Source: an uncultured Desulfosarcina sp. (lineage in GTDB: Bacteria > Desulfobacterota > Desulfobacteria > Desulfobacterales > Desulfosarcinaceae). Taken from it: a DNA stretch of 64,000 bases. The first letter of the stretch is position 1. Each line of letters begins with the position of its first letter. The position numbers and the translations under genes are program-made. This document shows positions 47,786 to 64,000 of this stretch, piece by piece. The stretch covers positions 1,792,001 through 1,856,000 of the forward strand of contig CAXXWQ010000003.1 in NCBI GenBank assembly GCA_963674945.2. The letters are read 5' to 3'. Below the pieces are notes generated by a model that was given only the letters and a program-made list of their open reading frames with translations, made no database searches and was not told where the DNA came from.

Positions 47786-47792
47786 AATCCCT

Positions 47793-48980
47793 ATGATTGG
47801 CATATCAAAGCTGTACTGCGGAACCGTGGAACCTTCGGATGCACTCCGTTACGGTCGTCACTCGTCTACGTTGCCATCTCACCTTCTGCAATTTTCCAAG
47901 GACAAACGACCCGTGGTGGTATGGAACGTGACACAAAAATGTAACCTGCGTTGCGTTCACTGTTATGCCCAAGCCACGGAAGATTGTGTGACAAACGAAC
48001 TTTCCACCGAAGAAGGCAAGCGGTTGATCGATGATCTGGCACAGTTTGGAGCGCCGGTAATGCTCTTTTCCGGCGGTGAACCCCTGGCAAGGCGTGATCT
48101 TCCCGAATTGGCCGCCTACGCCGTCGAGAAGGGCATGCGGGCGGTGATCTCAACCAACGGAACATTAATCACCGCCGATCTGGCCAGAACGCTCAAATCC
48201 ATCGGACTGTCTTACGTCGGCATCAGTTTGGATGGCATGAGGGAGATCAACGACCGGTTCCGGGGGGTATCCGGTGCCTTCGACAAAGCCATGACGGGCA
48301 TTGAAAATTGTCAAACCGCCGGTATAAAGGTGGGACTGCGCTTCACCATCAACAAATTCAACGTAGATGAAATTCCGGCAATTTTCGATCTCTTGGAAGA
48401 GCGGGACATTCCCCGGGTCTGTTTCTATCACCTGGTCTATGCAGGAAGAGGGTCCAAGATGGTGGAAGAGGATTTGAGTCTGGCGGGAACCCGCAAAGCC
48501 GTGGATCTGATCATCGACCGGACCAAGACACTTTGCGACAAGGGTATATTCAAGGAAGTGCTGACCGTGGACAACCATGCCGACGGCCCCTATCTCTACC
48601 TGCGACTGTTGAAGGAAAATCCGGAACGTGCGGATCAAGTCCTCGAGCTGCTCAAAATGAACGAGGGAAACAACTCCGGCCGAGGCATCGGTTGCGTTAG
48701 CTGGGATGGCGAAGTCTATGCCGACCAGTTCTGGCGCCACCATAGTTTTGGAAACGTTCGCAAAAGGCCGTTTTCCCAAATCTGGACCCGGCCGGAAGAC
48801 GATCTTTTGCTAAAGCTCAAGGAAAAAAAGGCCCATGTGAAAGGTCGCTGTGCCTCATGCAGGTGGCTGGATGTGTGTGGCGGAAACTTCCGCGTTCGCG
48901 CAGAAGCGGTTACCGGAGACGTATGGGCCCCGGATCCGGCCTGCTATCTATCCGATGAAGAGATCTCCCAGACGCTGTAG
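47793..48980 (+). CDS. ahbC: 12,18-didecarboxysiroheme deacetylase (radical SAM, NirJ1-type)
   Basis: [10 protein letters not shown]...[40 protein letters not shown] Cys; next to hemB. Confidence 0.92.
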
Positions 48981-49003
48981 ACAAGAAAGCCAGGAGTGAA
49001 TAT

Positions 49004-49978
49004 ATGTTGTTTCCCGACTATCGCCCCAGACGACTACGACGAAATGAAACCATACGAAAGATGGTCCGAGAGACGGTGCTAACCGTCAACGACTTGGTTC
49101 TCCCGCTGTTTGCCATTGATGGCAAGGACGTGAAAAATCCCATCGACTCCATGCCCGGCAACTATCAGCTCTCTGTCGACAATCTTGAAAAAGTGGCCAA
49201 ACAGGCCTTCGACATGGGAATTCCCGGCGTGATTCTGTTCGGCATCCCATCCAAAAAAGATCCTTTGGGCACCCAGGCCTATGCGAAGAACGGAATCGTG
49301 CAAAAAACGGTCCGCGCCCTGAAGGACAAAATTCCGGAGTTGGTGATCATCACCGACGTCTGCCTGTGTGAATATACCGATCACGGTCATTGCGGCTTCG
49401 TCGACAATGGACACGTGGACAACGACGCCACGTTGGACCTGCTGGCCAAAACCGCCTTGTCCCACGCCCAGGCCGGAGCGGATATGGTGGCTCCGTCGGA
49501 CATGATGGATGGACGAGTGGCGGAGATTCGGTCGGTACTGGATGAAAACGACTTTTCACAGATTCCCATCATGTCCTACGCGGCCAAATACTGCTCCGCA
49601 TTCTACGGTCCATTTCGCGAGGCTGCGGAAAGTGCCCCGAAATTCGGCGACCGCCGAACCTATCAGATGGATCCGGCCAATGCCAGGGAGGCCATCCGGG
49701 AAGTGACCATGGACGTGGAGGAAGGCGCCGATATTATTATGGTAAAACCAGCCCTGGCCTATCTTGACATTATCAGTCGGGTCCGCGACGAAGTGGACCT
49801 TCCCGTTGCCGCTTATAATGTCAGCGGTGAGTTTTCCATGATCAAGGCGGCTGAAAAAATGGGCTGGATCGATGGTCCCAAGGTGATGATGGAAACGCTC
49901 ACTGCCATCAAGAGAGCCGGCGCCGATATTATATTGACCTATTTTGCCATGGAAGCTGCGGCCCTGATCAGCGACTGA
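49004..49978 (+). CDS. hemB: porphobilinogen synthase (ALA dehydratase)
   Basis: [39 protein letters not shown]. Confidence 0.97.
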
Positions 49979-49996
49979 CAGTAAAAGGTAAAAACC

Positions 49997-51109
49997 ATGT
50001 CCCCACATCCCCATACAGACAAACCTGCCGGGCCACACGCTCCCGGAAAGAAAAACACCTTGCGACTCGTGGCCTGGGAGACCACGAGAAACTGCAATCT
50101 CTCTTGCATTCATTGCCGTGCCTCCGCCACCAACGGCCCCTATACGGGAGAATTATCGACGGATCAGGCCTTTCGCCTGTTGGACCAGATCGCCGAAGTG
50201 GCAAAACCGATCATCATTCTCACCGGTGGTGAACCGCTATTGCGAAATGATATCTTCGACATTGCCGAATATGGCGATGGATTGGGGCTTCGAATGGTCA
50301 TGGCGCCAAACGGGACCTTGATCACCCGAGAAGTTGCCCATCGGATGGCGGCTTCCGGTATCCAGCGCATCAGCGCCAGTATTGACGGGGCGACAAAAGC
50401 GGTCCACGACCGATTCCGCGGCGTTGACGGTGCATTCGATGCCGCCATCAAGGGAATCGAGCATGTGAAGGCTGCGGGGATCGAATTTCAGATCAACACC
50501 ACCATCACCAAATCCAATCTGGAACAGATTCCCAAGATTCTCGAATTGGCCGAAGAGTTGGGTGCAGTGGCACATCATATTTTCTTGTTGGTTCCCACGG
50601 GAAGGGGAAAGTACATCGTCGATCAGGCCATCGATGCGAAGGCATACGAAGAGACGCTAAATTGGTTTTACGACCAACGGGAAAAGACCACTTTGCAGCT
50701 AAAGGCCACGTGTGCCCCCCATTATTACCGTATTCTCCGTCAACGGGCCAAGGCGGAAGGAAAAACCATTTCTTTTCAAAGCCATGGACTCGATGCCGTC
50801 ACGAGGGGTTGTCTTGCCGGTACGGGATTCTGTTTCATTTCCCACACCGGCATCGTGCAGCCGTGCGGGTACACGGATGTGGCGTGTGGCGATATCACCA
50901 AGACCGACTTTGCAGCGGTGTGGAACCACGCCCCTGTTTTTCAGAGGCTTCGCGATTTTCGGCAATTAGAGGGAAAATGCGGACGTTGCGAATACCGTGC
51001 CGTCTGCGGCGGATGCCGCGCACGGGCATTCGAGGCAACTGGCAATTACATGGCCGAAGAACCTTTGTGCGCCTATCAACCGGAAAAAGCCGCACCATCC
51101 ATTGCATGA
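49997..51109 (+). CDS. ahbD: AdoMet-dependent heme b synthase (radical SAM, NirJ2-type)
   Basis: LRLVAWETTRNCNLSCIHCRA, FLLVPTGRG, KATCAPHYYR, GCLAG, CGRCEY..CGGCRARA. Confidence 0.92.
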   Translation: MSPHPHTDKPAGPHAPGKKNTLRLVAWETTRNCNLSCIHCRASATNGPYTGELSTDQAFRLLDQIAEVAKPIIILTGGEPLLRNDIFDIAEYGDGLGLRMVMAPNGTLITREVAHRMAASGIQRISASIDGATKAVHDRFRGVDGAFDAAIKGIEHVKAAGIEFQINTTITKSNLEQIPKILELAEELGAVAHHIFLLVPTGRGKYIVDQAIDAKAYEETLNWFYDQREKTTLQLKATCAPHYYRILRQRAKAEGKTISFQSHGLDAVTRGCLAGTGFCFISHTGIVQPCGYTDVACGDITKTDFAAVWNHAPVFQRLRDFRQLEGKCGRCEYRAVCGGCRARAFEATGNYMAEEPLCAYQPEKAAPSIA

Positions 51110-51167: not shown

Positions 51168-51785
51168 TTAATAGGCACGCAGTTGGAAGCTGATTTGCCG
51201 GTGAAGGCGATTGATTAGATCTTTCATGATTTCAGATTGATAATCGGTAATCGACATAAACTGCACCCCAACGCCATCTTCCTCTTGGCGAACAACGCAC
51301 CCTTTCAATTTCAAGGACAGATGATCGTCTGTGATGGTGAAACAGATGGAGAGACGCTGCCCCGTGTCGAAGCGCTCGAAACTTTCCACGAACATGCCCC
51401 CGACACTGATATCCATGGCGAAACAGTTGATGGCCCTTCCATTGGTCACCAGGTCCAAGGTAATTTGGCAGGGAACCCGTGGGTACTGCCGGAGCATGGC
51501 GAACTGTTTCTCTTCGTACCGTTTCATGAAATGAATCAGGTCCTGTTCCGACAATTGATGTATCAATAAAAATATGCGGGCAACGAGCAGTTGTCGATCT
51601 TTCATGTCTACACGATTACCCTTTCGAAATTTTGGTATCTGCAGCAATTCAGACTTTTCACGAACGCCCAGGTCCGAAAAAAGGGGAAGCACCGACACCA
51701 ATTGTTCATCCGTCATTTTGTAGATAGCGATGGAAAGACGGGTGACAAGCTTTTTCAGATTCGCCTGTCCGATGGTATCTTTCAT
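51168..51785 (-). CDS. PilZ domain protein
   Basis: RQYPR and DISVGG c-di-GMP motifs, GVGVQF; GGAG SD. Confidence 0.85.
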   Translation of the reverse strand: MKDTIGQANLKKLVTRLSIAIYKMTDEQLVSVLPLFSDLGVREKSELLQIPKFRKGNRVDMKDRQLLVARIFLLIHQLSEQDLIHFMKRYEEKQFAMLRQYPRVPCQITLDLVTNGRAINCFAMDISVGGMFVESFERFDTGQRLSICFTITDDHLSLKLKGCVVRQEEDGVGVQFMSITDYQSEIMKDLINRLHRQISFQLRAY

Positions 51786-52257
51786 CGATACGATCTCCAT
51801 ATATGGGTACAAAAACGAAAAAGATTTTATCTCCAATGCAAGAAAAAGATCAAGTATCAATGAAATGATACGATATAGAACTAAACGAGCTTACGATGGG
51901 ATCGAAAATCCGTTTCCATAGATGTAGCGTTTTGGCCGAAGGTTTCGAACCCAAATGATCATTTAAAAAAAACGGATTGCCGATGAAAGCGTTATTGAAA
52001 CAGGCATTAGAAATAATAAAAAGCTTGAAAAATCAATAACAAAAAGGGTATTAGAGATAATTACACCTTTTATGACCTTCCCACATCGATATGATTCGTT
52101 TTTGTAACGGCAAGAGGCGAAACCAATCGCCCGGGGGAAAGAATCGTAAGTTACAATGGTGGCGAGACAAGCCTCCAAACCAATACAGATACCGGTGAGG
52201 GCTTGGATGAGGCGGTCACTTTCAAGACAGAATTGAACTAGCAAGGAGGAAGAGACT

Positions 52258-52653
52258 TTGTCGTATATCCTTGATCAAGAGCAACTGGACGGTTTGGAAG
52301 AAGCGTTGACTTCCGATTTGATGACGCTGGGTCTGCAATCCGTTATCCTCATTGACATGGCCGGCAATGTCATCGTTAACCTTGATGATGGCAATGTGCA
52401 CCATGATGTCTATTCCTTGGCGGCATTGGCGGCCGGAAATTTTGGTGCCGTGAACGCGATGGCTTCCATCATCGGTGAAGAAGAGTTCTCCCTTCTCTTT
52501 CATAAAGGAAAGAGCGAGAACATAAACTTCACGAAAATCATGGATGATTTTCTTCTGGTGTCAATTTTCGGAAACGATGTTTCATTGGGGTATTTAAGGC
52601 TTAAAATCGATGAGGTGATAAAGAAAATCAAGGAGCTGATTAATCGGGCGTAG
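52258..52653 (+). CDS. mglB: MglB-like roadblock/LC7 protein (GAP)
   Basis: LIDMAGN, SLAALAAGN, GEEEF..LFHKG, SLGYLRLKI; AAGGAG SD with TTG start. Confidence 0.88.
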   Translation: MSYILDQEQLDGLEEALTSDLMTLGLQSVILIDMAGNVIVNLDDGNVHHDVYSLAALAAGNFGAVNAMASIIGEEEFSLLFHKGKSENINFTKIMDDFLLVSIFGNDVSLGYLRLKIDEVIKKIKELINRA

Positions 52654-52737
52654 CATGAAAGCCCCATCACGTAATTGAATCGGCCCTTTTTTCGCCGGGC
52701 TGTACTACCCGAATCCAATCAAATACGGGACGAAAGC

Positions 52738-53343
52738 ATGGCGTTCATCAATACAAAGACGAAGGAAGTTCAGGTAAAAATTGTCTATGTAGGTCCCGGA
52801 AGGGGAGGCAAAACGACCAATCTGGAGTATATCTTCAGCAAGATTCGTCATCGCATCGAATCGGATATGGTCAGTATCAAAACCCAGGGAGACCGGACCT
52901 TATTCTTCGATTTTTTGCCCTTTGAATTAGGTGTTATCAAAGATTACTACGTGAAAACACAGTTGTATACGGTTCCTGGCCAAATCAAGTACAATGCAAC
53001 CCGAAAACTCGTATTGAAAGGCGTGGACGGAATTGTTTTCGTTGCAGACTCCTTGGTTGAACGACGGGAAAACAATATTCATTCTCTGGAAAATTTGGAA
53101 AGTAATTTACAATTTCACGAACTCGACATCAATACGATTCCAATTGTTTTTCAATATAACAAACGCGACATGGCAAAACAGGGCATTCCGATTCTCGATG
53201 TTGAGACCATGGAGAAAGACCTCAACGAAAAACTAAAGGCGCCAAGTTTCACTGCCAGTGCCCTGACGGGAGAAAATGTCGTTCATACTGCGAAAGCCGC
53301 TATCTCGCGGACAATTGTGGCGGTCCGGGATAAACTTCTTTAG
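52738..53343 (+). CDS. mglA: MglA-like small Ras-family GTPase
   Basis: KIVY.GPG..GKTTNL, DRTLFFDF, LYTVPGQ, GVDGIVFVADS, QYNKRD. Confidence 0.93.
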   Translation: MAFINTKTKEVQVKIVYVGPGRGGKTTNLEYIFSKIRHRIESDMVSIKTQGDRTLFFDFLPFELGVIKDYYVKTQLYTVPGQIKYNATRKLVLKGVDGIVFVADSLVERRENNIHSLENLESNLQFHELDINTIPIVFQYNKRDMAKQGIPILDVETMEKDLNEKLKAPSFTASALTGENVVHTAKAAISRTIVAVRDKLL

Positions 53344-53354
53344 GAGGTGCCGAA

Positions 53355-53957
53355 GTGGACAATAATGCAAAGGATACATTCGCCTTTGATCTGGAAAATC
53401 GTCTCGATGATTTCTTTAGTGATTCCGAGCCTCCCCCGGATGCGGCACCGGAACTCGAAGATGACTTTATTCTAAAGGATTTGAAGTCGGCGGTGCTGGC
53501 CATCGACTGGGAAATCACCGATGATGCACTCGATGATTTCATCACACAGCTCCACAACCTGGAGGAACCATTTGAGAAAGACAAGGTAAACCAGACGTTC
53601 CTCAAAATACAGATCGCACTGGCGAAATATCTTCGTCTCCACAAGTCGAAGGCACATCCAGATGCCATAAAATGTGTGATGGCCGTCTATTCGGCCCTGG
53701 AAAAAGCGGTTACCGAAACGGAACTGAGCCAGGGTGAAAAGGAGGAGATGCTGGCGGAGCAGGTGAAACGATTCAAACAGTTAAAGGCGATGATTTTCCA
53801 GTCTAAATCTGCAACATCCAAGGCAAGCGACGAAGGCCCGTCGTCGAAAAAGCTGCCGGACATGGACAAACTGATCGACGCCATTGCTGATCTCAAATCA
53901 ACGGTTTTGCAGGAGATTGCAGCCATTCGAAAGGAGATCGAACAGCTGCAAAAATAG
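53355..53957 (+). CDS. acidic helical hypothetical protein (IDWEI motif)
   Basis: AGGAGG SD, GTG start 11 nt after mglA; LKSAVLAIDWEITD; C-terminal coiled coil. Confidence 0.8.
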   Translation: MDNNAKDTFAFDLENRLDDFFSDSEPPPDAAPELEDDFILKDLKSAVLAIDWEITDDALDDFITQLHNLEEPFEKDKVNQTFLKIQIALAKYLRLHKSKAHPDAIKCVMAVYSALEKAVTETELSQGEKEEMLAEQVKRFKQLKAMIFQSKSATSKASDEGPSSKKLPDMDKLIDAIADLKSTVLQEIAAIRKEIEQLQK

Positions 53958-54018
53958 GTTTTCGATCCCACCCACCGACAGCACCAGGAAATCCAAACGC
54001 ACGGGCGCACTTTCCGGC

Positions 54019-55062
54019 TCAAGGCCGAAGGATCGTATCAATGCCTTGGACGTTATCTGTTGATGCCCCCAGGGCCAGACGATCATCCACCAGACCGGTT
54101 ATATCTGCATTTTCAATCAATTGGTATCGGACCATGAGATCGGCGATTTCCTGAAGTCCCGATTCTTTCGGGACGAACCGATCGTATATGATCCTGCCTT
54201 TCGGAACGCGCAGAGCATACCCAACGACATCGATGGTTTGGTTCCAGTAACCGGAAACAATCCGCGCCGCTTCGTCAGGATTTCGGCTGGCCCACAGGCC
54301 TGCACGAATCGCCGATTCGACGAGTTTCTTCGCTTCCACCGGGTTGTCGTCGAGCCATTGTTTTTTCACCAATACGAGGTTGCATATGAAATTGGGCCAC
54401 ATGGATTCCGCATGGGCGATCACATCCGCCCTGCCCCCATATACCGTTTGGGCGGCAAAGGGTTCACCGACAAAATAGGCGTCCAGAGTTCCGGCGGTCA
54501 GGGCCGCAGCCATATCCGGCGGGTTCATCTCCACGACCCGAATCGTCCCGGTAAGCCCCTTTTCCTCAATCTCTCGCTGCAATGCGAGATTATGTCCCGA
54601 GTAGCGCATGGGCACGGCGATCGTGCTTCCCGAAAGGGATGTAAGGCCTCTTGCGTTAAGTGTCTTTCTGGCCACAAGTGTACTTTCGTTGCGGTTGCCG
54701 ATTAAAACCACTTTCACGTCAGCACCCTGCTGGCGAAGCACCACGGCCAACGGCGCGATGATAAACGCCACTTGGATGCTGTCATTTCGCAAGGCCTCTG
54801 CCATTTCTGCGAATGACGCAAATTTAATGGATTCAAAACGAATTTCCCCGCCGTCCTTCGTCACGTGATCCAAAATCGGGGCAGCCAGATTGGTGACTAC
54901 AGGCATATATCCCATTCGAATCAACTTCTGCGCCCTTTCGTCATCGTTCAGGCGATGGTGAAGCCAGGAGATGAAGAGCAGCCAGACCAGAAAGCACAGA
55001 AACAATCGAAGTGAAAGTGGCCACCTAAAAAATGTAGATAGACCGTTTTCCCTATACGGCAT
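54019..55062 (-). CDS. NitT/TauT-family ABC substrate-binding protein, membrane-anchored
   Basis: IRMGYMP, F.SF.EM.EAL, IAVP..YSGHN, MNPPDM..AL..G.LDAYFVGEPF. Confidence 0.88.
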   Translation of the reverse strand: MPYRENGLSTFFRWPLSLRLFLCFLVWLLFISWLHHRLNDDERAQKLIRMGYMPVVTNLAAPILDHVTKDGGEIRFESIKFASFAEMAEALRNDSIQVAFIIAPLAVVLRQQGADVKVVLIGNRNESTLVARKTLNARGLTSLSGSTIAVPMRYSGHNLALQREIEEKGLTGTIRVVEMNPPDMAAALTAGTLDAYFVGEPFAAQTVYGGRADVIAHAESMWPNFICNLVLVKKQWLDDNPVEAKKLVESAIRAGLWASRNPDEAARIVSGYWNQTIDVVGYALRVPKGRIIYDRFVPKESGLQEIADLMVRYQLIENADITGLVDDRLALGASTDNVQGIDTILRP

Positions 55063-55849
55063 AATTCACTCCCATCAACAGAAACAACTCGTCTCTCAAT
55101 CGATGCAGGGCATCGGATTTTTCAAAATGCCTGGGACGTGGAAAGTCGAGTCTGCGATCCATTACCACACTTGTAGGGGATTTTCCTAAAATTACAATAC
55201 GATCGCCCATGATCAGGGAGTCGTCGATGTTATGTGTGACCAACAAAATGGTGCTATTGATAAATGTGTGCATGTTTACCACTTCCTCTCGCATTTTCAT
55301 ATGCGTGAGGAAATCGAGACCGCTAAAAGGTTCGTCCATGATCATGATGTCAGGATTTACAGCCAGTGCCCGTGCAAGTTCGGCCCGGCGCTGCATACCA
55401 CCCGAAAGCTGTCTGGGATAGTGCTGCTCGAATCCTTCCAATTCAACCATTTCGATGTATTCCATCACCCGCTCCTGCTTCTCCCTTTCGTTTTTCAAGC
55501 GACGAAGCCCCAAACTGACATTTTCGGCCACGGTCAGCCAAGGGAACAGACCACTGTGCTGGAATACGAAAATATGATCCGCCGAAGGCCCTTTTACTGT
55601 TTTACCATCGATTTTTACGCTACCCTTCGTGGGTGATTCGAATCCGGCGATAATTTTGAGCAATGTCGATTTTCCACAACCGGACGGGCCTAAGATACAA
55701 ACCATCTCTCCATCGGTAATTCGAATGTCGATATCCGATAATACGGAAATGAAATCTCCTTGCCGCTGGTCTGAATCACCTTCACACCGAGGGATCCTGC
55801 GGCGATTCACATATGACTTGCTCAGTTTTTCAATGGAAATATTACCCAT
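55052..55849 (-). CDS. NitT/TauT-family ABC ATPase
   Basis: GPSGCGKST, LFPWLTV, LSGGMQRR, MDEPF, VTH. Confidence 0.94.
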   Translation of the reverse strand: MGNISIEKLSKSYVNRRRIPRCEGDSDQRQGDFISVLSDIDIRITDGEMVCILGPSGCGKSTLLKIIAGFESPTKGSVKIDGKTVKGPSADHIFVFQHSGLFPWLTVAENVSLGLRRLKNEREKQERVMEYIEMVELEGFEQHYPRQLSGGMQRRAELARALAVNPDIMIMDEPFSGLDFLTHMKMREEVVNMHTFINSTILLVTHNIDDSLIMGDRIVILGKSPTSVVMDRRLDFPRPRHFEKSDALHRLRDELFLLMGVNYAV

Positions 55850-55858
55850 TCCTCTCCC

Positions 55859-56671
55859 TTATTCCATCGTCACACGCCAATTTATGGATTCCAATTTCCC
55901 TAGTTTGTGCATGAAAAAATCCAGTGCCAGGCCGACCAGTCCGATGACGATCATGCCATCGATCACATAGTCCATGCGCAATGCATTTCTCGCATCCAGG
56001 ATCAAAAAACCGAGTCCCGACTGAACGGCAATCATCTCCGCAGCCACAACCACCAACCATGAGATGGTCACGGTCATCCGCAAAGCCGTGATCACGTCGG
56101 GAATGATTGCGGGAATCACGAGGCGAAACACGGTTTCGATCCGGGAAAAATTGAAGTTGGATGCCACATAAAAATAGGTGGGGTTGATATTGTCCACGGC
56201 GATCGTAGTGGAGACGGCCATGGGAAAAAAACTGGATAGAAATATCAGGAAGACCGCCGGAGGATCACCGATACCGAACCACAACATGGCCAAGGGAATC
56301 CATGCCAGGGGAGATACCGGACGTAAAAATTGAATCAATGGATTGATGATTGATCGAAAGCTTTTCGTCATGCCGACGGCAATCCCCACGGGGATCCCCA
56401 CGATTGCCGCCAGATAGAAACCCAGTGTGACACGATACAAACTGGCAACGGTGTGCCTGAGAAGTCTTCCGTCGACGATCAGTTCAACCAAACTCTTCAG
56501 CACCAGGACAGGTCCTGGGAATACTCGGCTGTTCCAACCACTGTAACGACTGAGCAACTCCCAAAGGAGAAAAAGCACGGCAAAACCGAAAAAAGGCAAT
56601 ATATGTGCAAGAAATTTTTTTTCGGTCTCTTTTTTCTCTCCAATCATGATTGAATTTTCAAGATTGGTCAT
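55859..56671 (-). CDS. NitT/TauT-family ABC permease
   Basis: SLYRV..G, LRPVSPLAWIPL, W..VVAAEMI...GLG. Confidence 0.92.
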   Translation of the reverse strand: MTNLENSIMIGEKKETEKKFLAHILPFFGFAVLFLLWELLSRYSGWNSRVFPGPVLVLKSLVELIVDGRLLRHTVASLYRVTLGFYLAAIVGIPVGIAVGMTKSFRSIINPLIQFLRPVSPLAWIPLAMLWFGIGDPPAVFLIFLSSFFPMAVSTTIAVDNINPTYFYVASNFNFSRIETVFRLVIPAIIPDVITALRMTVTISWLVVVAAEMIAVQSGLGFLILDARNALRMDYVIDGMIVIGLVGLALDFFMHKLGKLESINWRVTME

Positions 56672-56688
56672 ATTGAACCAAAAGGATA

Positions 56689-57450
56689 TCAGTAACTGTT
56701 ATAAATCAAATGAATTCCGATGAGCGTGAGAAGAAAAATGAAGACTTCCTTGAGTATTCTCTCATTAATCTTCTCGGCAAGCCGAGGGCCAACCTGACCG
56801 CCGATAATAACACCCGGGACGGCCCAAGCAAGCGCCCACAACTCCGCTTTTGCACCGAAGGCCAGATGAATGATGGCGGCAACGACGCATGTACCGAAAA
56901 TCGCCACAATACTGGTGGAAATGGCCGTTCGCATTTGCAGGTTCAATCGTCCCCGCATAAAGGGAACCAGCCACTCGCCGATGCTCACGCTGAGCATCCC
57001 GCTTGCGATGGCCATGGTCGAGACGATCCAGCCATATCGCCATGCCTGCTTCACCGGCACACGAAGCAAACCGGTATCGCTATATTTCTGATTGAACGAT
57101 ACGAAGATAAAGGCCGTCGTCAATGTCAAGATCCCCAATGCCAATTCCAGGTTGGCCGACGAAAGCGACCGGGTAAGCAATGCCCCGAAACCGAGACCGG
57201 GTAGGGTCACCACCAAAAAAAATCCGGCCAGATGAAGGTCCGGTGTTTTCCGTTTGATATAAGCGATGCTTCCCGATCCCATGCCGGCCGTTTGCACAAG
57301 CAGGGAAGTGACGATCGCCGTTTCGGCGGGCAGTTTCAGGAAAATGAGAAAAAAAGGCATCCATAGGATACCACCGCCGATGCCGACCGTCGAAACCAGG
57401 CCGGCGATGATCACACCCACTGGCAGAGCCCATGGCGTAAGGCCCATCAT
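56689..57450 (-). CDS. TauE/SafE (sulfite exporter / TSUP) family protein
   Basis: GIGGG..W.P, TSL, AISTS, G..IGGQ.G; about 8 TM. Confidence 0.88.
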   Translation of the reverse strand: MMGLTPWALPVGVIIAGLVSTVGIGGGILWMPFFLIFLKLPAETAIVTSLLVQTAGMGSGSIAYIKRKTPDLHLAGFFLVVTLPGLGFGALLTRSLSSANLELALGILTLTTAFIFVSFNQKYSDTGLLRVPVKQAWRYGWIVSTMAIASGMLSVSIGEWLVPFMRGRLNLQMRTAISTSIVAIFGTCVVAAIIHLAFGAKAELWALAWAVPGVIIGGQVGPRLAEKINERILKEVFIFLLTLIGIHLIYNSY

Positions 57451-58070
57451 GGCATGCCATCCACAGAATAGAGTTTGAAAAGATCGATGACGCTGCCCAG
57501 AGTGGTCAATTCCGCTTCCAGACGAAAGAGTTTATTGTTGAGAAGTTCTCTTCCCTCCGGCATCACACTACTGTCTGCTTGCTGTTTCTTTGCAATGTCC
57601 ACCACCTTTTTGGAAGACTCACATACACTGCGGGACAGCATGATGATCTCCTGCAGATTGGTGGACATGTCGTCGATGGCGGCTGACAACTGAGACAGTT
57701 CGTTTTTCATCCTCACCCCTGAAGTCTTGCTCAGATCGCCTCCGCAGATTGCCTGGGACACCACCACCATATGCTGCAGTGGTTCGGTTATCGTTTTAAT
57801 GAACATGGTCAGCACGATAACAACAACGGCGAGGATTACACCGACCATCATCATCGCTTTGGTTCGGATTCGCTGCAGTGAATCGACGGCGTATGACTGC
57901 ACGGTCTCTTTGTCATCGATACCATCCCAATCCGCCTTGAGCGCATGGTTCCACTTCCCCGAATGGGTTTCCATGACAAATTCTGCGGCCACCATCAAAG
58001 AGGCAAATCCGATTAAGAGAAAATATACGATCATGGTACGTTGGAGCGAATAAGTATTAGATGGTTTCAT
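57447..58070 (-). CDS. two-TM HAMP protein resembling a chemoreceptor without its signalling domain
   Basis: TM-short loop-TM, ITEPL...GDLS...NEL..L..AID.M, short tail ending VIDLFKL. Confidence 0.82.
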   Translation of the reverse strand: MKPSNTYSLQRTMIVYFLLIGFASLMVAAEFVMETHSGKWNHALKADWDGIDDKETVQSYAVDSLQRIRTKAMMMVGVILAVVVIVLTMFIKTITEPLQHMVVVSQAICGGDLSKTSGVRMKNELSQLSAAIDDMSTNLQEIIMLSRSVCESSKKVVDIAKKQQADSSVMPEGRELLNNKLFRLEAELTTLGSVIDLFKLYSVDGMP

Positions 58071-59524
58071 AGTGCCGTATCATTACCGGTTTTCACTACC
58101 GTCTTTACGAGGTCGTCAGGGATCACTTCCACATCTGCAAGACCGCTTTCCACCACACGGTCCAGAGGCTCTGAAACCATGCTGGATTCACGCTTGCGCA
58201 AAATGATCCGACCGCCACTGTTTTTCACTGCCTGCAATCCGGACTGGTCCCCGGCGTATGCGCCGGATAGCAAGACGATCGTCAAGCGATCTTTGAAGAT
58301 TTCGGCGGCCCTGGACAAGAAATGATCGACGGGAACCCTCTGGTCTTCAGGTAAAAAGGGGTCCGGTTCGATAACGAAAGCGTCATCGCCGCTGTTCACC
58401 GAAAGGGGACAACCCACAATTCCCACATATGTGCGCCGGACCAGAAGCGGAGTCCTTCGGTCGATGGATGTTGCATGAATCCCCAATCGATTCTGGAGAT
58501 ATTCGGCAAAGGCGGTGCTAAACGTCGGGGGCAGACTCTCCAGGGCAACAACGGCTGCCGCCATGGAATCCAACGAGGGGATCAGGCCGGACAAAAGGCC
58601 AATCTGATCTGAAAAACCGCCGGCACCACTAATTACGACGACCAAGCTTCGACACGGAAGTTCGGGCGGGGCGACGTATTCCGATTTGGACAGACGTACG
58701 ATCCTGAAATTCTCAACTCTCGCCGTGGCGGCGAGTCGAATTCGCTCGTGTATTTTTTCTTGTTGAACCAGGATATCCTGACTTCTGGTGGGCTTGCTCA
58801 TGAAATCCACGGCGCCCAATTCCAAAAACTTGAAGATTGACCGAAAGGCTCCCTCTCCCGGACTTGACATGATGACCACCGGACAAGGTTTTTTGATCAT
58901 GATATGTTTGATGGTGCTGGTACCGTCCATCACAGGCATGTTCACATCCAGTATCACCAGATCCGGTGAAAGCTCGTCGATCAGTGCAATCGCCTCCCGG
59001 CCATCGCCAGCCATTCCGACCACTTTGACCCAGTCCCGCGAGGTTAAAAGATTGGCGAGAATTTTTCTCATCATGGGCGAGTCATCGACGATGAGAACCC
59101 GCATGCGGGCCTGGTCATTGCTCGCGTCGGCATCGCAGGTTTCCGAGGCGAGTTTCGATTCGGACTTGTATTTTTCGTCGAAACGCCGTGCGGCCTCCAT
59201 GATCAACATGTTGTAATTTTGCGAAATTGTTTTTTCGAAGGGTTTGGATACCGAATCGGTTTCGAAGCGCCCGGTCTGCCAACCCAGCATATGGTAAAAG
59301 GCTGCCTCACCGACAAGCCCCTGGCAGACTGCATGAACGATCTCCCCCTCAACAAAAACGATGGAGCCGGCTTGATCGGCATTTTCAACTTGCAGGCAAA
59401 GGCTGGAAGCCGACAAGCAGAACATCTGGATCAAGTCCACCAAATAGACGTCTTTCAATTTTCCGGTAAAGCCACCTACTTTATCCGGAGAAGCGTCAGT
59501 TATATCGGAGCACTTGATTTCCAT
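58067..59524 (-). CDS. cheB: DUF4388(PATAN)-REC-CheB-like protein, probably catalytically inactive
   Basis: FTGKL..V.LVDLIQM...G.I.F.EGEIVHA...GEAAFY.ML.W..GRF; intact REC; CheB fold with altered triad. Confidence 0.85.
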   Translation of the reverse strand: MEIKCSDITDASPDKVGGFTGKLKDVYLVDLIQMFCLSASSLCLQVENADQAGSIVFVEGEIVHAVCQGLVGEAAFYHMLGWQTGRFETDSVSKPFEKTISQNYNMLIMEAARRFDEKYKSESKLASETCDADASNDQARMRVLIVDDSPMMRKILANLLTSRDWVKVVGMAGDGREAIALIDELSPDLVILDVNMPVMDGTSTIKHIMIKKPCPVVIMSSPGEGAFRSIFKFLELGAVDFMSKPTRSQDILVQQEKIHERIRLAATARVENFRIVRLSKSEYVAPPELPCRSLVVVISGAGGFSDQIGLLSGLIPSLDSMAAAVVALESLPPTFSTAFAEYLQNRLGIHATSIDRRTPLLVRRTYVGIVGCPLSVNSGDDAFVIEPDPFLPEDQRVPVDHFLSRAAEIFKDRLTIVLLSGAYAGDQSGLQAVKNSGGRIILRKRESSMVSEPLDRVVESGLADVEVIPDDLVKTVVKTGNDTAL

Positions 59525-59571
59525 TGCCTTTTTGTCCTAACTTACCAACAGGGAACGATGGCCCCGGGTTC

Positions 59572-62500
59572 TCAAAACACGGTGGCCGATATTTTTTTTT
59601 CCGTGAGCCATTCCTTTGCCATGGTTACCAATTCGTCCACGTTGAGAATCAACGAGATGCCACCGTCTCCCAAAATGGTTGCCCCCGAGATCCCGCTTTT
59701 TTCCTGCAGGTAGTCATCCAAGGGCTTGACGACCACTTCCTGCCGTCCCAACAGCGTGTTGACGATGAATCCGGCCCGTCCTGTGGCTGCATTGACGACG
59801 ACGACACAAAGGCGGCCTGTATCGCTTACCGGTGAAAATGTTTTCATATGCAGGATATCGGTCAGACGGATCAGCGGCAGTGGCTCATCGTGCAGATGGA
59901 TGACTTCGCTGCCGTCTACGAAAAAGATCTCACCCTTATCGACGTGCAATGTCTCTGCCACCGTACTCAACGGGATCGTGAAGTGAGCGCCTTCGCAATG
60001 AACCATCAAGGCGGGAATGATGGCCAGCGTCAGTGGTATCGTAATGCGGATTCGCGTTCCCACATCCTGCCGGGTATCGATCATCATGGTTCCGTTGATT
60101 TTTTCGATGTTGCGTTTGACCACATCCATCCCGACGCCTCGCCCGGAAGTGTGCGTGATCTTACTTGCGGTGGAAAAACCCGGCAGCATGATCAGGTCCA
60201 CCAACTCCCTTTGATTTATGTCGGCCAAAGTCGCCGGATCGACAAGGTTTCTCTCCACGGCCTTTTGCCGAACGCGGGACAGATCGATCCCTTTTCCATC
60301 ATCGGTGATATCGATGACGACGTTGCTCCCCTCCTGGTAGGCGGCAAGGACCAGAACACCCGTTTCGGGTTTGCCCTTGCGTTTTCGTTCCTCCCGGGTC
60401 TCGATACCATGATCCACGGCGTTGCGAATAATATGGATCATCGGATCGGCCAGTTGTTCGATCACCATTCGATCCAGTTCGGTCTCCTCACCCTGGAACT
60501 GCAGTTGAACCTTTTTATCGGTATCCTTGACCAAATCGTGGATTAATCTGGGATACCGATTGAAAAGCTGTGCGATGGGCAACATCCGAACCTTCATTAC
60601 CTGTTCCTGGAGTTCTCCGCTTACCCGTCCTAAAACCGACGTGGCATCATTGATACGGGCGGCCAGACTGTTCACCATGCGAAGATCCGCCTTGTCCATG
60701 TCAAACCGCTGGTTGAGATATTGGATCAAATCTCGCATCTGATGGAAAATCTGGGAAAAGGAGGAACGGTTAACCACCAGTTCACCAACCTGGTTCATCA
60801 AACTATCGATTTTTTCTGCATCGACGCGGATGCTCTTTCGAATCATCTTTCGCGCCTTGAACGCTTCGGTCGATTCCGGCGGTAAAGTCGATCTTTCTCC
60901 AGTTACCTTCTCTTCGGTCGAAGGTATTGAGAAATCGAATGAAGGTGCGACGACAGATTCTTCTTCGGCGGAATCATCGCGGCCCACTGCGGGTATCGGC
61001 TTTGCCATGGGCCACAATTCCACGAAATCGTCCGAAGTCTCTTCGAGTTGCTCGCGCGTCTCTTGGGCAAAATCCGATAGGAGAGAAGCGTCTGCAGCCG
61101 GGGCCGTCGATGACTCCGAGGACAACGGTTCCTGTTGAGGCTCCTCATCCGGGTCCGGGGACAATTCCAACTCGTGCTCATCTTCTTCCTGGTGAAGGCT
61201 GTGGTCCAATTCCTCCTCATCGAGAAGTTGATCTTCGTCAAGGTCTTTTTCCGCGATCGTCTCCGTCGGGCTCGCCATGGACGAAACATCCATATCCGCA
61301 AGCGTCTGAAACTCGGGAAAAAGCGCCTGGATACGCCGGACGGATGGAACCAGGTGGGATTCAACGAACGATGCTGCCGCGTCGGCATCCGGATTTCCGG
61401 CGGGATCGCAAAGGGGCGACAGGGCCGCCGTAAGATCGTCGTAGATCCGGTTGATGGCATCGAATCCCATGTAGTTGGCCGTTGCGGACATCCGGTCCAC
61501 CTGGTCGGCCAGCTTTCCCACCGCGGTCTCAAGATCGCTTCCTTCCATGATCCGCCGCGCCGTCGCCATCAACGCCTCGATCCCGGCGATCAGTTGTTCC
61601 ATGAAAATCGTCAGCAGTTCCGCATCCGTCTCCTTGTCAGCATCCAGGGACCCATCTTCGGCCGTCTCTTCTCCGGACGGTGTCGATTCTTCGGAAAGCG
61701 CCGTCACACGAGAAAGCAGATCGTCGATCTCGCTGCCCTCTTCGCCCGACGATTCGATCTCGGTCACCAACGCCTCCATACGGTCCCGGGCATCGATGAA
61801 AAGGTCCACGGCGATCTTGTCGCAGGATCGCGTGCCGCTTCGATACAGGTCCAACAGATTCTCCAGACGGTGGGACAAATCGGCGATTCGATCGAATCCT
61901 AAGTACTCGGAGGCACCCTTGATCGTGTGAATCGAACGGAAACTGTCATTCAACAGATCCGGATCCGAAGGGTTCAAAGCCATCTGTAACAGCGAGCTTT
62001 CCAATGCGTCGAGATGCTCGCGCGTCTCTTGGGCAAAATCCGCTACCAGGGATGGGTCTGCTGCCGGAGGCATCGATGCCTCCGGTGAAGACGGTTCCGG
62101 TTGGGGCTCCTCGTCCAGGTCCAGGGATAATTCCAACTCGGGTTCATCCTCTTCCTCCTGGCCAAGGCTGTCGTCCAGCACTTCCTCATCAAGGAGCAGA
62201 CCTTCGTCAAGATCAGTTTCCGTGATCGTCTCTGTCGGGCTCGCCATGGACGAAACATCCATATCCGCAAGCGTCTGAAACTCGGGAAAAAGCGCCTGGA
62301 TACGCCGGACGGATGGAACCAGGTGGGATTCAACGAACGATGCTGCCGCGTCGGCAACCGGATTTCCGGCGGGATCGCAAAGGGGCGACAGGGCCGCCGT
62401 AAGATCGTCGTAGATCCGGTTGATGGCATCGAATCCCATGTAGTTGGCCGTTGCGGACATCCGGTCCACCTGGTCGGCCAGCTTTCCCACCGCGGTCTCA

Positions 62501-64000
62501 AGATCGCTTCCTTCCATGATCCGCCGCGCCGTCGCCATCAACTCCTCGATCCCGGCGATCAGTTGTTCCATGAAAATCGTCAGCAGTTCCGCATCCGTCT
62601 CCTTGTCAGCATCCAGGGACCCATCTTCGGCCGTCTCTTCTCCGGACGGTGTCGATTCTTCGGAAAGCGCCGTCACACGAGAAAGCAGATCGTCGATCTC
62701 GCTGCCCTCTTCGCCCGACGATTCGATCTCGGTCACCAACGCCTCCATACGGTCCCGGGCATCGATGAAAAGGTCCACGGCGATCTTGTCGCAGGATCGC
62801 GTGCCGCTTCGATACAGGTCCAACAGATTCTCCAGACGGTGGGACAAATCGGCGATTCGATCGAATCCTAAGTACTCGGAGGCACCCTTGATCGTGTGAA
62901 TCGAACGGAAACTGTCATTCAACAGATCCGGATCCGAAGGGTTCAAAGCCATCTGTAACAGCGAGCTTTCCAATGCGTCGAGATGCTCGCGCGTCTCTTG
63001 GGCAAAATCCGCTACCAGGGATGGGTCTGCTGCCGGAGGCATCGATGCCTCCGGTGAAGACGGTTCCGGTTGGGGCTCCTCGTCCAGGTCCAGGGATAAT
63101 TCCAACTCGGGTTCATCCTCTTCCTCCTGGCCAAGGCTGTCGTCCAGCACTTCCTCATCAAGGAGCAGACCTTCGTCAAGATCAGTTTCCGTGATCGTCT
63201 CTGTCGGGCTCGCCATGGACGAAACATCCATATCCGCAAGCGTCTGAAACTCGGGAAAAAGCGCCTGGATACGCCGGACGGATGGAACCAGGTGGGATTC
63301 AACGAACGATGCTGCCGCGTCGGCAACCGGATTTCCGGCGGGATCGCAAAGGGGCGACAGGGCCGCCGTAAGATCGTCGTAGATCCGGTTGATGGCATCG
63401 AATCCCATGTAGTTGGCCGTTGCGGACATCCGGTCCACCTGGTCGGCCAGCTTTCCCACCGCGGTCTCAAGATCGCTTCCTTCCATGATCCGCCGCGCCG
63501 TCGCCATCAACTCCTCGATCCCGGCGATCAGTTGTTCCATGAAAATCGTCAGCAGTTCCGCATCCGTCTCCTTGTCAGCATCCAGGGACCCATCTTCGGC
63601 CGTCTCTTCTCCGGACGGTGTCGGTTCTTCGGAAAGCGCATCCACACGTGAAAGCAGATCGTCGATCTCGCTGCCCTCTTCGCCCGACGATTCGATCTCG
63701 GTCAACAGCGCCTCCATACGGTCCCGGGCATCGATGAAAAGATCCACGGCGATCTTGTCATAGAATCGCGTGCCGCTTCGATACAGGTCCAGAATATTCT
63801 CCAGACGGTGTGACAACCTGGCGATTCGATCGAATCCCAGGTATTCGGAAGCACCCTTGATCGTGTGAATCGAACGGAAACTGTCATTCAACGGCTCCGG
63901 TTCCGAAGGGTTCAAAGCCATCTGTAACAAGGCGCTTTCCAATGCTTCAAGATGTTCGCGCGTCTCTTGTGCAAATTCCTCTATCAGAGATGGGTCTGTC
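59572..64000 (-). CDS. cheA: CheA histidine kinase with tandem Hpt repeats; 5' end lies outside the window
   Basis: Three FRSIHTIKGAS; SIRVD..KIDSLMNQVGELV; HIIRNAVDHGIE; DDGKGID; SGRGVGMDVV; IPLTLAI; CheW domain. Frame stays open to the window edge (TDPSLIEEFAQETREHLEALES). Confidence 0.95.
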   Translation of the reverse strand, partial: TDPSLIEEFAQETREHLEALESALLQMALNPSEPEPLNDSFRSIHTIKGASEYLGFDRIARLSHRLENILDLYRSGTRFYDKIAVDLFIDARDRMEALLTEIESSGEEGSEIDDLLSRVDALSEEPTPSGEETAEDGSLDADKETDAELLTIFMEQLIAGIEELMATARRIMEGSDLETAVGKLADQVDRMSATANYMGFDAINRIYDDLTAALSPLCDPAGNPVADAAASFVESHLVPSVRRIQALFPEFQTLADMDVSSMASPTETITETDLDEGLLLDEEVLDDSLGQEEEDEPELELSLDLDEEPQPEPSSPEASMPPAADPSLVADFAQETREHLDALESSLLQMALNPSDPDLLNDSFRSIHTIKGASEYLGFDRIADLSHRLENLLDLYRSGTRSCDKIAVDLFIDARDRMEALVTEIESSGEEGSEIDDLLSRVTALSEESTPSGEETAEDGSLDADKETDAELLTIFMEQLIAGIEELMATARRIMEGSDLETAVGKLADQVDRMSATANYMGFDAINRIYDDLTAALSPLCDPAGNPVADAAASFVESHLVPSVRRIQALFPEFQTLADMDVSSMASPTETITETDLDEGLLLDEEVLDDSLGQEEEDEPELELSLDLDEEPQPEPSSPEASMPPAADPSLVADFAQETREHLDALESSLLQMALNPSDPDLLNDSFRSIHTIKGASEYLGFDRIADLSHRLENLLDLYRSGTRSCDKIAVDLFIDARDRMEALVTEIESSGEEGSEIDDLLSRVTALSEESTPSGEETAEDGSLDADKETDAELLTIFMEQLIAGIEALMATARRIMEGSDLETAVGKLADQVDRMSATANYMGFDAINRIYDDLTAALSPLCDPAGNPDADAAASFVESHLVPSVRRIQALFPEFQTLADMDVSSMASPTETIAEKDLDEDQLLDEEELDHSLHQEEDEHELELSPDPDEEPQQEPLSSESSTAPAADASLLSDFAQETREQLEETSDDFVELWPMAKPIPAVGRDDSAEEESVVAPSFDFSIPSTEEKVTGERSTLPPESTEAFKARKMIRKSIRVDAEKIDSLMNQVGELVVNRSSFSQIFHQMRDLIQYLNQRFDMDKADLRMVNSLAARINDATSVLGRVSGELQEQVMKVRMLPIAQLFNRYPRLIHDLVKDTDKKVQLQFQGEETELDRMVIEQLADPMIHIIRNAVDHGIETREERKRKGKPETGVLVLAAYQEGSNVVIDITDDGKGIDLSRVRQKAVERNLVDPATLADINQRELVDLIMLPGFSTASKITHTSGRGVGMDVVKRNIEKINGTMMIDTRQDVGTRIRITIPLTLAIIPALMVHCEGAHFTIPLSTVAETLHVDKGEIFFVDGSEVIHLHDEPLPLIRLTDILHMKTFSPVSDTGRLCVVVVNAATGRAGFIVNTLLGRQEVVVKPLDDYLQEKSGISGATILGDGGISLILNVDELVTMAKEWLTEKKISATVF
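61050..64000 (-). repeat. 969-bp (323-codon) intragenic tandem repeat, three copies plus a stub
   Basis: GATGGGTCTG recurs at 62051, 63020 and 63989; identical shadow ORFs are offset by 969. Confidence 0.97.

Follow-up and report, generated by a model that had tools for sequence, protein, structure and literature searches.

This analysis concerns a chemosensory (che) gene cluster and an ATP-binding cassette (ABC) importer of the NitT/TauT type, which lie together at the end of a 64,000-nucleotide window of an uncultured Desulfosarcina sp. (assembly GCA_963674945.2, contig CAXXWQ010000003.1; in our numbering G000:C3:1792001-1856000). The importer is a standing part of this chemosensory system, as its linkage with the che genes across families and gene orders demonstrates. 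Positions above 64000 extend the window numbering along contig C3. The genes of the unit, and of the operon that faces it, are as follows:

52258..52653, plus strand: mglB, short form of the Roadblock/LC7 family (Robl_LC7 E 2e-6, Pfam), 92-95% identical within the genus; in a separate, convergent operon
52738..53343, plus strand: mglA, small GTPase of 201 amino acids from the ATG common to relatives (Ras/Arf matches, Pfam); homologues in 76/80 genomes
53355..53957, plus strand: orf3, conserved helical protein that comes after mglBA with or without a che cluster; no Pfam match, and all matches in the ESM Atlas are hypothetical proteins
54019..55062, minus strand: NitT/TauT-type binding protein with an N-terminal membrane helix (NMT1_2 E 6e-24)
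55052..55849, minus strand: ABC ATPase (Pfam), every catalytic motif intact
55859..56671, minus strand: ABC permease (BPD_transp_1 E 8e-19)
56689..57450, minus strand: TauE/SafE membrane protein (TauE E 1e-37), coupled to the HAMP gene
57447..58070, minus strand: protein with two transmembrane (TM) helices, a HAMP domain and a short helical hairpin (HAMP E 9e-7; no MCPsignal match)
58067..59524, minus strand: DUF4388(PATAN)-REC-CheB-like pseudo-methylesterase (Pfam domains; triad residues replaced), the predicted output protein
59572..64044, minus strand: cheA (Pfam), start codon 44 nucleotides past the window end
64066-64419, minus strand, beyond the window, same unit: cheY
64433-64960, minus strand, beyond the window, same unit: cheW
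65090-67713, minus strand, beyond the window, same unit: methyl-accepting chemotaxis protein (MCP) gene, in-frame TAG at codon 729 of 874
67816-69042, minus strand, beyond the window, same unit: Zn-finger-REC-CheB-like gene, Thr/Tyr/Asp at the triad

The full minus-strand unit thus runs from the Zn-finger-REC-CheB-like gene through MCP, cheW, cheY, cheA, DUF4388-REC-CheB-like, HAMP, TauE, permease and ATPase genes to the binding protein, and an ISAzo13 element starts 60-90 nucleotides in front of it. From cheA to the binding protein, the recomputed junctions are 47, -4, -4, 17, 9 and -11 nucleotides, and mglB-mglA-orf3 (plus strand, 52258-53957) converges on the unit at 61 nucleotides from the binding-protein stop. 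The places of the reading frames, the gene families and the six junctions given in a preliminary description of this DNA all agree with the recomputation and a Pfam scan. Of the genes that it suggested to look for upstream, cheY, cheW and an MCP gene are present, but no cheR lies in the cluster. The description also took the unit to be co-transcribed, and no internal promoter is indicated, because promoter-like (7 vs 9.5) and terminator-like matches (11 vs 14.1) are not above those in shuffled sequences, in a scan that is weak. A search of a plasmid collection gave matches of 27-30% only.

Linkage of the importer to the chemosensory genes

Genomes were sampled from the order of the window genome (401) and from the phylum (401), and only 4 candidates per genome were scored in the survey for the DUF4388-CheB marker of the che system. 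In the order sample, the binding protein was found in 46 genomes, the marker in 48 and both in 39, against 5.5 expected by chance, with related genomes not being independent in this comparison. Of the 7 genomes with a binding protein and no marker, all six that were checked (every one but G060) do have CheBs of this class. Nine genomes have the marker without a binding protein; in one of them the contig breaks off within the ATPase gene, and the other 8 have no binding-protein match. Outside the order, 15 genomes of the phylum sample, from four families, match the binding protein at E <1e-100.

Linkage was determined by script, within 6 kb of genes of the class, for 74 genomes (52 linked, 11 unlinked, 11 uninformative), and six (G748, G770, G792, G428, G511 and, with 6.9 kb, G049) were then moved to the linked ones by eye. 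The importer is finally linked within 7 kb in 58/74 genomes from 18 families, 28 of them from the family of the window genome and 30 from outside; 8 are unlinked, all of which carry che genes elsewhere, and 8 have contigs too short to be informative. The ABC block can be found at the end or the start of the cluster, divergent from the MCP gene or convergent on parA, on either side and on either strand. Upstream it is flanked by tauE, parA, a MinD-like gene, the HAMP gene, the Zn-CheB gene or a divergent MCP gene, and downstream by orf3, Zn-CheB or DUF4388-CheB. In family f138, which lies outside the order, a complete 13-gene run leads from Zn-CheB to the binding protein, and this family groups with f54 in quick trees of CheA (support 99) and of the binding protein (93), as is expected if the whole unit moved together; the CheA tree lacks the f170 sequences, which the motif filter removed, and deliberately omits as many as 12 congeneric genomes. 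That the importer travels with the che genes, in line with the preliminary description, is thus supported by the neighbourhoods, and also by co-regulation in Syntrophobacter fumaroxidans.

The proteins are those of a NitT/TauT importer, with a BPD_transp_1 permease, an ATPase that has Walker A/B, Q-loop, signature and H-loop, and an NMT1-type binding protein, and the ATPase motifs are intact in full-length copies across genomes. The model of the binding protein (predicted local distance difference test, pLDDT, 90) has the fold neighbours 3un6 (Z 35.9, root-mean-square deviation 2.2, 284 aligned), NrtA (32.9), CmpA (32.4) and TauA (28.6), with 17-18% identity to NrtA and CmpA. In these two proteins, the Lys (NrtA) or Glu (CmpA) of the HPE(K/E) motif has a ligand role. 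An invariant Asn228 aligns at this position, and the ligand can therefore be assigned neither to the nitrate nor to the bicarbonate type; likewise, the importer scores under the NCBIfam cut-offs for SsuA, TauA and NrtB. The N-terminal membrane helix is conserved, and the binding proteins, 42-71% identical among orthologues, form one clade in a quick tree (71 rows, Shimodaira-Hasegawa-like approximate likelihood ratio 100, stem 1.57). One member of this clade, in G587 (L179:5972-8840), has no permease and ATPase genes next to it and stands behind a di-haem cytochrome c peroxidase gene.

For S. fumaroxidans, the supplement of PMC10787695 contains RNA-seq data of early versus late co-cultures with M. 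formicicum or M. hungatei, and all statements here refer to the rows and sections of that source that were covered. Sfum_1642-1654 encode, on one strand, permease, ATPase, binding protein, a long CheB-like protein, CheW, MCP, CheY, CheA, DUF4388-CheB, a third CheB, MglB and MglA, assigned to this class from motifs in the table and not by alignment. Judged by its motifs and its genes, the 'cheBYW and MCP operon' Sfum_1645-1652 thus belongs to this class; the importer (Sfum_1642-1644) precedes it and mglBA (Sfum_1653-1654) follows. It differs in that no TauE or ParA gene is in the rows covered (PMC10787695). The log2 fold changes with M. formicicum are +3.9, +4.1 and +3.8 for the importer and +3.3 to +4.2 for five che genes, and with M. 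hungatei +4.4, +5.8 and +4.5 for the importer and +3.4 to +4.3 for the four che genes seen, so importer and che genes are up together 10- to 50-fold. The last two CheBs change less (+1.4 to +1.9), and mglB and mglA, with -0.2 to +0.6, are not co-regulated with the cluster. Seven upstream genes range from -0.7 to +1.6, but Sfum_1640 and 1641 just upstream reach +4.0 to +6.7, with three rows in between not covered. The data are evidence of co-regulation, but not of a common transcript or of physical coupling. The section on Sfum_1645-1652 notes differential expression alone, and 'ABC' has 0 matches in the main text as covered (PMC10787695).

The TauE-HAMP pair is a looser cassette than the importer. 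With 130 bits in PF01925 (cut-off 32.6), the TauE protein is placed in the TauE/SafE sulfite-exporter family, and export of sulfite or another sulfur anion is a prediction from family membership. In the HAMP protein, TM2 and HAMP match the MCP of the cluster (probability 93.7) and the match stops after HAMP; the Pfam scan found no MCPsignal hairpin tip, and the ESM Atlas gave no named family for the part beyond HAMP. Its model is all-helical with a short hairpin after HAMP, and with pLDDT 68 and a predicted template modelling score of 0.34 it is too weak for a fold search. The protein resembles a chemoreceptor without the kinase-control tip. The preliminary description counted TauE as part of the unit, and its coupling to the HAMP gene stands (tauE follows in 47/51 loci by script, in 49/51 by eye), but the pair is next to che genes in just 5 families (32/49 genomes), apart in 9 genomes with adequate flanks and uninformative in 8. 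Both genes are absent from the cluster in G025 and G008, and a second, distant pair is found inside the cluster in G074, G142, G088, G150 and G255, where the importer was not found (genomes 82-94% complete).

The copy of the cluster in the window genome is decaying. The TAG in its MCP gene occurs with the same letters in contigs of three public runs, namely X1 and X2, from a single sample that may be the source, and X4; an assembly error was therefore rejected. Read-through with pyrrolysine was also rejected, as no pylS scored over the cut-off and the site has no conserved residue (Arg 13, Glu 4, Gln 3, Lys 2, Asn 1 and Gly 1 of 24). A second full-length copy of the MCP was not found in this genome. 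In loci of the same genus, the DUF4388-CheB and HAMP genes are separated by a zinc-ribbon-ParA gene. No orthologue of it was found here (best match 33%), and the direct junction of the two genes is hence derived. With the MCP stop and the missing ParA gene, the pathway is probably impaired in this genome. Other genera have an extra third REC-CheB-like gene, often with a second HAMP gene, between cheY and cheA. In a congener (L052, G023:C1:200200-220100), the genes from Zn-CheB through most of cheA are replaced by other open reading frames, with DUF4388-CheB, parA, HAMP, tauE and importer still intact.

Signalling components and output

The view that every Che component is non-canonical has to be corrected, as CheW, CheY and the kinase core of CheA are ordinary, whereas the CheBs do deviate. 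The core of the system is complete: besides CheW, CheY and the MCP that is broken here, there is a CheA whose domains are Hpt (with its His), dimer, HATPase_c and CheW. CheA begins with three 969-bp repeats in its gene, neighbours being 96% identical, and each repeat encodes one Hpt with His and one His-less Hpt-like block ahead of the canonical dimer-kinase-CheW core. Contigs collapse across them, as expected of real repeats, and the CheAs of relatives have one to three His-bearing Hpts. The CheB triads were scored by alignment to the two ordinary CheBs of this genome, both with the full Ser-His-Asp. A complete triad was present in 0/50 DUF4388-type, 0/32 third-type and 4/32 Zn-type CheBs; the two copies at this locus have Gly/Ser/Gly (DUF4388-type) and Thr/Tyr/Asp (Zn-type). 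Receiver Asp and Lys are invariant across 20 aligned CheB-like proteins. The CheBs of the cluster are therefore, to judge from these residues, predicted to be mostly pseudo-enzymes. A cheR was detected in 1/92 loci holding a CheB-like match, and by eye that locus (L066) is a different, ordinary cluster, so the arrangement is not that of a canonical methylation-adapting system with cheR in the cluster. The MCP hairpin is long and constant, HAMP motif and tip being 222 residues apart in 22/25 cases (the motif was not found in 3), which we take to be about 12 heptads per arm more than in E. coli Tsr. Its sensor domain is swapped among orthologues, even within the genus, being Cache_3-Cache_2, dCache_1 or without Pfam match. 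The window genome has two further cheA clusters, with cheR and a full-triad CheB, and a MinD/FlhG-like gene lies inside some clusters of relatives. In a second cluster of G250 (L210:12774-17515), permease and ATPase genes are interleaved with those of two Peripla_BP_6 binding proteins; the clade binding protein of that genome belongs to another cluster copy. In G527 (L184:448-9700), the class cheA is faced by convergent genes for an outgroup-type ABC importer, for a protoglobin and for a GAF-GGDEF-EAL protein.

As to the output, the preliminary description expected cell polarity rather than the flagellar motor. A flagellar output is indeed unlikely, because FliM was found in only 30/65 carriers of the system (26/49 among good genomes); it was not found in 35/65, nor in 23/49 good genomes, two of which are single-contig. 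In the family of the window genome, 11/12 members have FliM. PilM is found in 33 of the 35 carriers without FliM, two below cut-off, and also in 26/27 non-carriers, and mglA in 53/53 carriers and 23/27 non-carriers; MglA and PilM were dropped as markers of output, being too common to discriminate.

The link with mglBA is weaker than suggested: these genes adjoin the che system in four lineages, two of them with a PilB-type ATPase, but they form an operon of their own that is nearly universal and is not co-regulated in S. fumaroxidans. The mglB-mglA-orf3 operon faces the importer in four genera of the window genome's family, and of 11 mglA loci that were read outside the che cluster, 10 have orf3 beside mglA. 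A head-to-head arrangement of the cluster with mglB-mglA-orf3-like-TPR/MshEN/PilB ATPase is present in G587 and G527 (the likeness to orf3 being shown for G587 only), and in S. fumaroxidans, by the rows covered, mglBA directly follows the cluster. According to the covered parts of 10.1101/2021.06.11.447907, DUF4388 is the PATAN domain and binds PilB1 and PilC in Synechocystis, and in those of PMC4316618, group 1 mglA genes are sometimes near PATAN genes, while Myxococcus mglA is not near its partners. Type IV pili are the best guess for the output, because of the context of FliM and mglBA-PilB and the identity of DUF4388 with PATAN. A second mglA (57% identical) of the window genome lies between a TPR-like and a DUF4388-like gene (G000:C3:2273988-2276829), and away from the che cluster, mglB-mglA-orf3 is followed by a 156-amino-acid gene and signalling-like genes in several genomes (L217-L226), also in a non-carrier.

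Possible roles of the importer

The explanation that we prefer, tentatively, is that of a conserved chemosensory cluster of Desulfobacterota with a dedicated NitT/TauT-type importer, in which the importer is likely the input of CheA and the type IV pilus motor likely the output. We infer that the transporter feeds the pathway because it has been kept beside the che genes through many rearrangements. In such a pathway, a small periplasmic solute would be bound by the membrane-anchored binding protein, and either the long MCP or the tip-less HAMP protein would sense, within the membrane, this binding or the transport by permease and ATPase. As a next step, CheA with CheW would phosphorylate CheY and two or three REC-CheB pseudo-enzymes. 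The DUF4388 domain may act on the pilus assembly ATPase, and the ParA-type ATPase would position the array. MglA/MglB could be the general polarity switch of the cell, downstream and outside the operon, and TauE with its HAMP partner a second, exchangeable input of the transporter type. A wider version of this idea, which we consider doubtful, sees an undescribed class in Desulfobacterota, in which transporters, be it the ABC importer or a TauE protein, serve as receptors via tip-less, chemoreceptor-like HAMP proteins to a multi-Hpt CheA, two or three phosphorylatable CheB pseudo-enzymes replace methylation, and PATAN leads the output to PilB and MglA/MglB. Four genomes from three families, where the importer was not found and a second TauE-HAMP pair is in the cluster, fit this version.

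Several findings weigh against the importer as input and the pili as output. No binding protein was found at E 1e-25 in the che carriers G074, G142, G150, G088 and G374 (0/5; genomes 86-94% complete), nor any match to it in G255, G304 and G396, and since che genes are thus present where no binding protein could be detected, the system does not depend strictly on the importer. In 8 genomes, among them those of f135 that were read, importer and che genes lie apart, and the co-regulation in S. fumaroxidans fits an importer that is merely required at the same time. CheR is encoded elsewhere in 5/5 carriers checked and in the window genome, and 4/32 Zn-type CheBs have the full triad, so that methylation in trans may occur. 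On the side of the output, mglBA is not adjacent in most families read, the presence of PilM and MglA does not single out pili because they are as common in non-carriers (26/27 and 23/27), and the flagellar FliM is present in this genome.

The importer could also be a partner and not a sensor, which takes up or clears the solute of the MCP, as a sink that possibly substitutes for methylation adaptation, or which imports a nutrient of the same stage and is merely co-transcribed. This is unlikely in our view, even though the intact ATPase motifs of full-length copies, the co-regulation in S. fumaroxidans, the 8 unlinked genomes, the carriers without importer, the mostly inactive CheBs and the absence of cheR from the cluster all agree with it. 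Members of the clade are found only in genomes with this che system (45/46 in the order sample, all those checked), a restriction that would not be expected of an ordinary nutrient importer; moreover, the binding protein occurs without adjacent permease and ATPase in G218, G250 and G587. Such lone binding proteins, in G218 and G250 beside CheB-like genes, would suit a mechanism in which the liganded protein contacts the MCP of the cluster by docking to its periplasmic domain, and permease and ATPase only import. The docking of the maltose-binding protein on Tar is the textbook precedent, and other binding proteins lie within some clusters (Phosphonate-bd in G054; two Peripla_BP_6 in G250). Docking is nevertheless distinctly improbable, as the sensor domain of the MCP is exchanged among orthologues, at constant cytoplasmic length, while the binding protein stays 42-71% identical.

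For a control of the flagellar motor or of flagellar gene expression, as in ordinary chemotaxis, speak the canonical CheY, FliM here and in 11/12 family members, and the MinD/FlhG-like gene in some clusters. It is very improbable in view of the carriers in which FliM was not found (35/65; 23/49 good genomes), and in this genome cheR and full-triad CheB are found with the two other cheA clusters; in the covered part of the S. fumaroxidans table, the only K03407 gene is the cheA of this cluster, and 'FliM' and 'flagellar motor' have no match. That the adjacency is inherited gene order without function is hardly tenable and already largely refuted. One family accounts for 28/58 linked genomes and the copy here is decaying, but in 18 families the linkage has persisted through reshuffling, whichever the side and the strand, the block is sharply co-regulated in S. 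fumaroxidans as far as its table was covered, and none of the six other permease homologues of this genome lies near its two other cheA clusters.

Chemoreception by binding proteins is known from the pairs maltose-binding protein-Tar, ribose- and galactose-binding protein-Trg and DppA-Tap of E. coli and from PstS-CtpL of P. aeruginosa. As in these cases, the present system links a binding protein of the ABC type to a CheA pathway. Unlike them, it has the genes of an entire importer together with the che genes, its binding protein carries a conserved N-terminal membrane helix, the MCP sensor varies, and adaptation enzymes are missing or inactive. Sensing coupled to transporters is known from PstSCAB-PhoU-PhoR and BceAB-BceS, and SRII-HtrII is a receptor-transducer pair. 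These and the present system share the coupling of a membrane transporter gene to a HAMP protein that has two TM helices and only a small periplasmic part; here, however, the HAMP protein has neither kinase nor MCP tip and the downstream kinase is CheA. The Frz system of M. xanthus differs in receptor, CheA architecture and adaptation enzymes, and is not known to have an importer. The proposed common logic with Frz-RomR-MglA/MglB (PMC4316618, in the part covered) is a chemosensory system upstream of MglA/MglB. With the cyanobacterial Tax/Pix PATAN-REC regulators (10.1101/2021.06.11.447907, in the part covered), the system shares a DUF4388-REC fusion in a chemosensory cluster, which here is additionally fused to a dead CheB domain, and the CheA here has no C-terminal REC.

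A published description of the system was not found in the literature searched, which did not cover the main chemosensory classification papers. The chemosensory classes F1-F17, ACF and Tfp are said to have been named by Wuichet and Zhulin, and the CheA of S. fumaroxidans may already bear a class label, because its genome has long been public. In the part of Tran 2008 (PMC2577667) that was covered, ABC and transporter have 0 matches. The coupling of an importer to an atypical chemosensory system is real, conserved and, apparently, undescribed. For the che core, a class name may already exist. Without flagella, many sulfate reducers and syntrophs nevertheless move on surfaces and aggregate, and their steering is poorly known. 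The system is present in about 1/8 of the genomes of the order sampled (48/401) and also in other orders, and in S. fumaroxidans, where the part of the table covered has no other annotated CheA locus, its expression is high in cultures at early aggregation. Whether an entire importer is wired into a chemosensory array, with CheB domains reused as phospho-regulated adaptors, can be tested on this system, which also provides a defined ligand-binding protein for screening.

In the remainder of the window, a PilZ-domain gene (51168-51860) is divergent from mglB and kept next to mglBA throughout the window genome's family, and a MinD/FlhG-like gene comes after it in many relatives. A Clp-type AAA ATPase gene is followed by radical-SAM, hemB-like and radical-SAM genes (45998-51109), which by their motif-based labels we take to be apparently an alternative haem pathway; the last of them flanks pilZ-mglBA in several relatives. 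An open reading frame of 433 amino acids (4689-5990) is transposase-like on reading, and between 31504 and 44392 seven large minus-strand genes of 299-775 amino acids with signal-peptide-like starts stand in a run.

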